Assembly: GCF_003334385.1 (NCBI RefSeq)
Contig: NZ_QOWN01000009.1
Length of the DNA: 64,000 bases
DNA from: Escherichia coli
GTDB taxonomy: Bacteria; Pseudomonadota; Gammaproteobacteria; Enterobacterales; Enterobacteriaceae
Direction: 5' to 3' (one strand)
The translations under genes were made by a program, and so were the position numbers. The notes under the pieces are model-generated. The model was not told the origin of the DNA. It saw only the letters and a list, made by a program, of their open reading frames with translations, and searched no databases. Positions 62,910-63,097 of this stretch are shown one piece after another (position 1 is the first letter of the stretch; each line of letters opens with the position of its first letter).

Positions 62910-63043
62910 CTTAGATATCCTTATAAAAGACGATATTTCATTATCGGTAAATTGGCTTTGCGGGAAATCTCCGGTTACGGACGTAAAGATATAATCTTTT
63001 TTAAAACAATGAATTAAAAAATTAAGCTGCTTATTTAATTTTC

Positions 63044-63059
63044 TGGCACGACGGTTGCA
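63044..63059 (+). promoter_or_regulatory. Sigma-54 (-24/-12) promoter of rtcBA
   Basis: TGGCACgacggTTGCA matches TGGCAC-N5-TTGCA, about 40 bp upstream of the rtcB start. Confidence 0.85.
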
Positions 63060-63097
63060 ATTATCAGGACAGCAAACAACGAAAAGAGAAAAACAAA

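Follow-up and report, generated by a model that had tools for sequence, protein, structure and literature searches.

An intact rtcBA control region beside a disrupted rtcR activator gene in an Escherichia coli lineage

Introduction

Promoters of the sigma-54 class form closed complexes that need an activator to open. For the rtcBA operon of E. coli K-12, the promoter and its divergent activator gene, rtcR, were reportedly described by Genschik et al. in 1998. RtcR combines a CARF domain, an AAA+ domain and a helix-turn-helix (HTH) domain (PMC7790460), and the rtc promoter comprises an upstream activating sequence (UAS), an IHF site and a −24/−12 element (PMC9650030). The 175 nt upstream of rtcB confer RtcR-dependent activity on a reporter (PMC5175333). 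The RtcR UAS was listed as ‘not known’ in a 2016 review (PMC4987338). Both ‘the rtcBA UAS’ and ‘the rtc IHF site’ are mentioned without their sequences in PMC9650030, the supplements of which give a plasmid description only and no UAS or IHF sequence. Published work links the Rtc stress response to ribotoxin survival and to transient tolerance of ribosome-targeting antibiotics.

The locus analyzed here lies at the end of a 64-kb stretch of E. coli DNA, which we call the window. The gene order is glpE-glpG-glpR on the + strand, rtcR on the − strand and rtcB on the + strand, with rtcB running off at position 64000. This is the same locus as PrtcBA/rtcR of K-12, with glpR and rtcB as its flanks. 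The −24/−12 string is identical in the two strains, the leader length is 28 nt, and across the 1.9 kb that run from rtcR to the start of rtcB a K-12 genome shows roughly one further single-base difference. However, the window strain carries a 10-bp deletion in rtcR that K-12, like all 5,426 complete E. coli genomes searched, does not have.

A second described arrangement is the rsr-yrlBA-rtcBA operon of Salmonella and other enterobacteria. These operons share with the window locus a divergent rtcR, a palindrome at an equal offset and the motif TGGCACG-N4-TTGCA, which in them lies ~137 nt from the rtcR ATG; they also have an IHF consensus site. Most of them begin with rsr (Ro60-like) plus Y RNAs and have an intact activator, whereas in the window strain rtcB comes first and the activator is broken.

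The window locus is a known system that has lost its regulator, and not a new system. We consider it very probable that 62910-63097 serves the E. coli Rtc RNA-repair system as its divergent control region, that its activator has been disrupted by a genuine deletion, and that rtcBA has been left at a basal, uninducible level.

An intact sigma-54 promoter between rtcR and rtcB

The gap between the two divergent genes (62910-63097, 188 nt) extends from the rtcR start codon at 62907-62909 on the − strand to the rtcB ATG at 63098-63100. It contains three conserved parts, namely a palindrome, an AT-rich IHF-like tract and a sigma-54 promoter. We compared rtcR loci from 18 species representatives, from six more genera found by exact-protein look-ups and from four divergent E. 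coli. The alignments show two conserved islands with divergent AT-rich DNA between them; one island is the promoter, and the other is TTATAAAAGACGATATTTCATTATCG, which adjoins rtcR.

The promoter, CTGGCACGACGGTTGCA, occupies 63043-63059 on the + strand, with GG at 63045-63046 (−25/−24) and GC at 63057-63058 (−13/−12). It fits the extended sigma-54 consensus YTGGCACGrNNNTTGCW at all specified positions, and the two doublets are exactly ten bases apart within TGGCAC-N5-TTGCW. The element lies 134 nt from the rtcR start codon and 38 nt before the rtcB ATG. A sequence-only reading of this DNA had already pointed to a −24/−12 element, TGGCACgacggTTGCA at 63044-63059 (+), upstream of rtcB and divergent from rtcR, and our analysis bears this out. 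In the 64-kb window TGGCAC-N5-TTGCW matches twice, against 0.13 matches expected, and none of 100 shuffles gave two matches. The second match, TGGCACAGTTGTTGCT at 21124-21139 (+), lies 41 nt before the start codon of rpoH (ATG, 21180) and is the sigma-54 promoter already known for that gene. Sigma-54 ChIP-seq in K-12 has recorded both sites: OS35 (rtcB), marked confirmed, is letter-identical to CTGGCACGACGGTTGCA, and OS36 (rpoH), CTGGCACAGTTGTTGCT, is identical to the second window match (PMC4591121). The rtcBA promoter element is real, non-random and already known.

This element is kept at a matching offset from rtcR in at least eight genera. TGGCAC-N5-TTGCA lies 133-138 nt from the rtcR ATG in Escherichia species, Klebsiella oxytoca, Salmonella, Enterobacter, Phytobacter, Intestinirhabdus and Superficieibacter, and slightly farther from it in Iodobacter; Pseudomonas and Accumulibacter have looser variants. 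The TGGCACG and TTGCA blocks are invariant in alignments A2 and A3.

Transcription of rtcBA would start at 63070 (+), the C of an ApC dinucleotide, which implies a leader of 28 nt. We place the start there because the native rtc promoter is primed with ApC at −1/+1 (PMC9650030), because the leader figure given for rtcB is 28 (PMC4591121), and because AC is found at 63069-63070. A likely rtcB ribosome-binding site, AAGAGA, follows at 63084-63089 (+). The window holds the first 300 codons of rtcB (63098-64000, +), and all 300 residues are those of RtcB from E. coli C.

A consensus scan of 62800-63200 on both strands found no sigma-70-type promoter. As a possible bypass promoter we considered the hexamer TATAAT at 62990-62995 (+), but we do not count it as a promoter, since a usable −35 is lacking and E. 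albertii and E. whittamii have not kept the hexamer.

Beyond E. coli, the DNA immediately following the promoter varies. In K. oxytoca a short rsr-like remnant ORF separates rtcB from the sigma-54 promoter. The promoters of the Pseudomonas and Accumulibacter loci are directly followed by GC-rich structured sequence; this is not a protein gene and is possibly a Y-RNA or tRNA-like element.

A candidate RtcR site and an IHF-like tract

A search of the intergenic region for RtcR upstream activating sites by comparison with other enterobacteria, which the sequence-only reading had suggested, yielded a candidate. This is CGATA-N6-TATCG at 62931-62946, and its position is fixed across the Enterobacteriaceae. 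It forms the core of the palindrome ACGATA-tttcat-TATCGG (62930-62947), the center of which is ~131 nt upstream of the inferred transcription start and ~106 nt from the −24 GG. The core occurs a single time in the 64-kb window, where 0.04 occurrences are expected. All Enterobacteriaceae loci that we fetched have the palindrome at a constant distance from rtcR, and the DNA retrieved contains hardly any other copies. GATA-N6-TATC is present in 8 of the 18 upstream zones, where the background rate is 0.011 per zone. In addition, the arms vary symmetrically between genera (ACGATA/TATCGT, GACGATA/TATCGTC and GCGATA/TATCGC). The palindrome also falls within the 175-nt RtcR-responsive fragment of PMC5175333.

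We propose the palindrome as the RtcR enhancer because it is unique and position-fixed, its arms change symmetrically, and it lies inside the RtcR-dependent fragment. On this comparative evidence we hold it fairly probable that CGATA-N6-TATCG is the enhancer and that the lineage would then be a natural RtcR-null with enhancer, promoter and operon all intact. The palindrome overlaps the rtcR leader, and its conservation could instead serve the expression of rtcR itself. As a specific and testable candidate for the RtcR binding site, CGATA-N6-TATCG is a small new addition; the sequence was not found in the literature searched.

Among the fetched loci, the strict palindrome was not found in Deltaproteobacteria or in several Pseudomonas, and we therefore claim the motif only for the Enterobacteriaceae and a few relatives. 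A wider motif tried for the distant taxa, GATA-N5-8-TATC, was present in one Pseudomonas only. We also discarded GATATC at 62914-62919 as a second site, as genera other than Escherichia have not kept it.

The left arm of the palindrome shows natural variation. E. coli Nissle 1917, a phylogroup B2 strain, and E. coli GPEC60 have CGAGA in place of the CGATA at 62931-62935, with the right arm unchanged, and the same left-arm change beside an unchanged right arm is found in one rsr-type locus (L036).

Between the palindrome and the promoter, the AT-rich tract at 63004-63024 (+) contains two overlapping one-mismatch matches to WATCAANNNNTTR, namely AAACAATGAATTA at 63004-63016 (+) and AATTAAAAAATTA at 63012-63024 (+). 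Superficieibacter, Salmonella, Iodobacter, Accumulibacter and three Pseudomonas have a perfect WATCAANNNNTTR at 30-42 nt upstream of the −24 TGG, and the E. coli matches are one-mismatch versions only. The IHF site of E. coli may lie at 63004-63024.

Two further elements lie on the rtcR side of the gap. A likely rtcR Shine-Dalgarno sequence, AAGGAT, occupies 62917-62922 (−) and is separated by 7 nt from the ATG (62909-62907), and the ATCC of this region is kept in most relatives. The block GGAAATCTCCG(G/T)TTACGGAC at 62963-62985 is common to Escherichia species, and other genera do not have it; it includes a small dyad (TCCG-N4-CGGA) and may be the promoter or operator of rtcR itself.

A 10-bp deletion disrupts rtcR

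In the window rtcR (61321-62909, −) is a pseudogene. One 10-bp deletion, of GTTCCGGCGA as read on the + strand, lies between 61930 and 61931 and shifts the frame after codon 326. Over 61300-63200 this deletion is the sole difference from E. coli 300709, which has an intact RtcR of 532 aa. What remains of the gene is an ORF of 436 aa (61599-62909, −), consisting of 326 native residues plus 110 out-of-frame residues, and an ORF of 202 aa (61321-61929, −) with a GTG start at 61929 that corresponds to the old C-terminus. The last 202 residues of RtcR are in a different frame from the AAA+ domain.

In intact RtcR, Pfam places the RtcR/CARF domain (PF06956) at residues 2-185, Sigma54_activat at 187-354 and the AAA lid at 362-443; the HTH is not called by Pfam even in the intact protein. 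Residues 1-326 of the 436-aa product are identical to intact RtcR. The N-terminal CARF domain is complete, and Walker A (215), GAFTGA (265) and Walker B (288-289) are retained. By contrast, the product has lost IAGT (327-330, in the sensor I region), R344 in FREDLYAR (the arginine finger), the lid and the C-terminal DNA-binding region. IAGT is deleted outright, R344 and the lid (362-443) now fall in another frame, and the Pfam hits recorded for the product include no lid domain. Based on the established mechanism of enhancer-binding proteins, the 436-aa product would be unable to hydrolyze ATP as a ring or to bind the enhancer.

The sequence-only reading had seen here a promoter kept and an activator lost, and both halves hold: the 188-nt region is 100% identical to that of many strains annotated with intact 532-aa RtcR, and rtcR is frameshifted after codon 326. 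That reading had made its conclusion conditional on the frameshift being real. The exact 436-aa product recurs on five independently assembled contigs (Logan) from public runs, SRR3823653 and SRR1815429 included. Because it recurs in independently assembled read sets, the 10-bp deletion is genuine and not an artifact of the window, and rtcR is not intact.

The alternative is that the deletion arose in sequencing, in assembly or through editing of the record, and that the activator is intact in the living strain. This view could appeal to the private nature of the allele, as the junction is found in 0 of 5,426 complete E. coli genomes and a query with the junction gave seven matches at 99% identity or more, all of them partial. 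It could also appeal to the junction itself, which has neither microhomology nor a homopolymer. Yet a clean 10-bp loss in non-repetitive sequence is untypical of a sequencing error, and of the five contigs that encode the frameshifted protein, the two that we examined (L031 and L032) are 100% identical to window positions 58599-64000 (5,402 bp), including the junction and the promoter. We also rejected poor assembly as the cause. Compared to E. coli C, the 64 kb show no further indels except a 3-nt gap, a 12-nt gap and two compensating 1-nt indels, and from 39001 to 64000 the window differs from E. coli C by 4 mismatches plus the rtcR deletion. Taken together, these observations make an artifact hardly credible.

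The same contigs carry the operon past position 64000. As the window includes neither the 3' part of rtcB nor any of rtcA, only the matching contigs show these to be intact. Full-length rtcB (408 aa) is present on both L031 and L032 and is identical to the E. coli C protein. On L031 rtcA is also full length (338 aa) and identical to that of E. coli C, and L032 stops within rtcA.

Two observations on the background of the deletion may be added. The junction at 61930/61931 has no flanking direct repeat or microhomology, which is atypical of slippage-type spontaneous deletions. Elsewhere in the window, the indels relative to E. coli C lie at 18187-18189, 23569 and 29444-29449, and the mismatches are concentrated at 16-30 kb in a recombination-like patch, whereas 39-64 kb is nearly identical.

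Expected consequences for rtcBA expression

In a normal strain, an RtcR dimer would occupy the upstream site, for which we propose CGATA-N6-TATCG at 62931-62946. The CARF domain would sense damaged tRNA or RtcAB, upon which RtcR would form an AAA+ ring. DNA looping, helped by IHF over the AT-rich tract (~63004-63024), would allow RtcR to meet the sigma-54 holoenzyme at 63043-63059, and ATP hydrolysis would then open the promoter and lead to rtcBA transcription from ~63070. In the window strain, the 10-bp deletion would leave no functional RtcR. The operon would stay at a low basal level, and neither tRNA damage nor ribosome-targeting antibiotics nor oxidative stress would induce it.

In this strain rtcBA should be uninducible, because sigma-54 promoters need an activator and because the induction of PrtcBA by VapC needs rtcR. 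For the loss of inducibility we rely on published ΔrtcR data, in which induction of PrtcBA by VapC was lost and RtcB expression was ‘not completely abolished’ (PMC5175333). Since RtcB partly persists in that mutant, a residual level of rtcBA expression is to be expected.

It could be argued that rtcBA is usefully expressed or inducible without RtcR, through a weak sigma-70 promoter, through read-through or through another enhancer-binding protein acting from solution. Useful expression of this kind would also account for a promoter and operon that have been kept, with rtcB and rtcA intact in the lineage. However, a recent deletion predicts an intact rtcBA equally, and the flanks are without further change. 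The residual RtcB of the ΔrtcR strain favors expression without RtcR, as does the RtcR-independent induction mentioned for Salmonella (PMC9650030). DctD250, which is without a DNA-binding domain, raised the activity of the Salmonella rtc promoter 16-fold from solution (PMC3844500), and cross-activation of rtcBA by another enhancer-binding protein is therefore conceivable and would be possible in principle. Against this stands the finding that VapC induction required rtcR. For a sigma-70 route, the + strand does offer the TATAAT hexamer at 62990-62995, but the lack of a usable −35, its lack of conservation in the two sister species and the negative consensus scan all speak against it. On balance, we judge useful RtcR-independent expression unlikely. 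We regard as distinctly improbable the idea that the operon has been kept through regulatory input from the truncated CARF-containing product or from another activator; an example would be a 326-residue CARF/partial-AAA+ fragment that sequesters RtcA, RtcB or tRNA halves.

Retention of RtcR activity itself would require either that the 436-aa and 202-aa fragments reassemble or that ribosomal frameshifting restores the full-length protein. Both rtcR ORFs are open, and the C-terminal one, if started from the GTG at 61929, spans the arginine finger, the lid and the DNA-binding region. However, the break interrupts the AAA+ core at its sensor I strand, with the four residues IAGT missing, the GTG has no Shine-Dalgarno sequence, and the 10-nt loss provides no known slippery site. 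To our knowledge, split enhancer-binding proteins of such a kind are without precedent, which counts against reassembly of the fragments. We put the chance of retained activity close to nil, and the reading that we prefer is an operon at basal level that has lost its activator.

For annotation, rtcR in this genome is a pseudogene and rtcBA is an intact operon without its only known activator. Strains of this lineage should be without the Rtc stress response and could serve as natural RtcR-null controls.

Loss and decay of the Rtc system in E. coli

The disruption of rtcR is not an isolated case. The rtcR-rtcB control region is absent in 570 of the 5,426 complete E. coli genomes (~10%). In E. 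coli U12A (L025, 3022-3808), a deletion of ~2.9 kb fuses the 3' remnants of rtcR and rtcA, both annotated as pseudogenes, and one genome has an rtcR that is shortened in frame. In the U12A type of loss, promoter, rtcB and activator have gone together, whereas in the window strain only the activator is hit; both show that loss of Rtc regulation or function is tolerated in E. coli.

A 90%-identity cluster around the 436-aa product contains at least six other rtcR frameshift alleles within codons 326-350. These frameshifts are at codons 329, 335, 339, 343 and 350, plus one deletion of a 16-nt type, and they lead into a common out-of-frame tail and stop. Several of the alleles occur on 7-8 contigs, and NCBI lists one of them (STL51144.1, a 439-aa product). 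Codons 326-350 may be a local frameshift hotspot, or the grouping may be a mere capture effect of clustering at 90%. The frameshifts at these five codons, in public E. coli, Shigella and Salmonella assemblies, are independent of one another and involve 1-bp changes and 439-aa products that share the tail and stop of the window product, whereas the window allele is a 10-bp deletion after codon 326 and is found on five contigs only. A protein search also returned many truncated lengths of RtcR in E. coli, Shigella and Salmonella.

Evidently the Rtc system can be dispensed with, and it erodes again and again. With at least six other frameshift alleles and about a tenth of the genomes without the locus, the rtcR lesion of the window is an ordinary one, and the untouched remainder of the system in this strain fits a recent event. 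The description given in the sequence-only reading, a small regulatory decay event, has the right size, as the promoter has long been known and decay of rtcR is common in E. coli.

E. coli PSS-12 presents the mirror image of the window strain, with decay on the promoter side. Its rtcR is annotated as intact, and at the positions corresponding to 63055-63059 its −12 region reads TTGTA, with the invariant GC gone.
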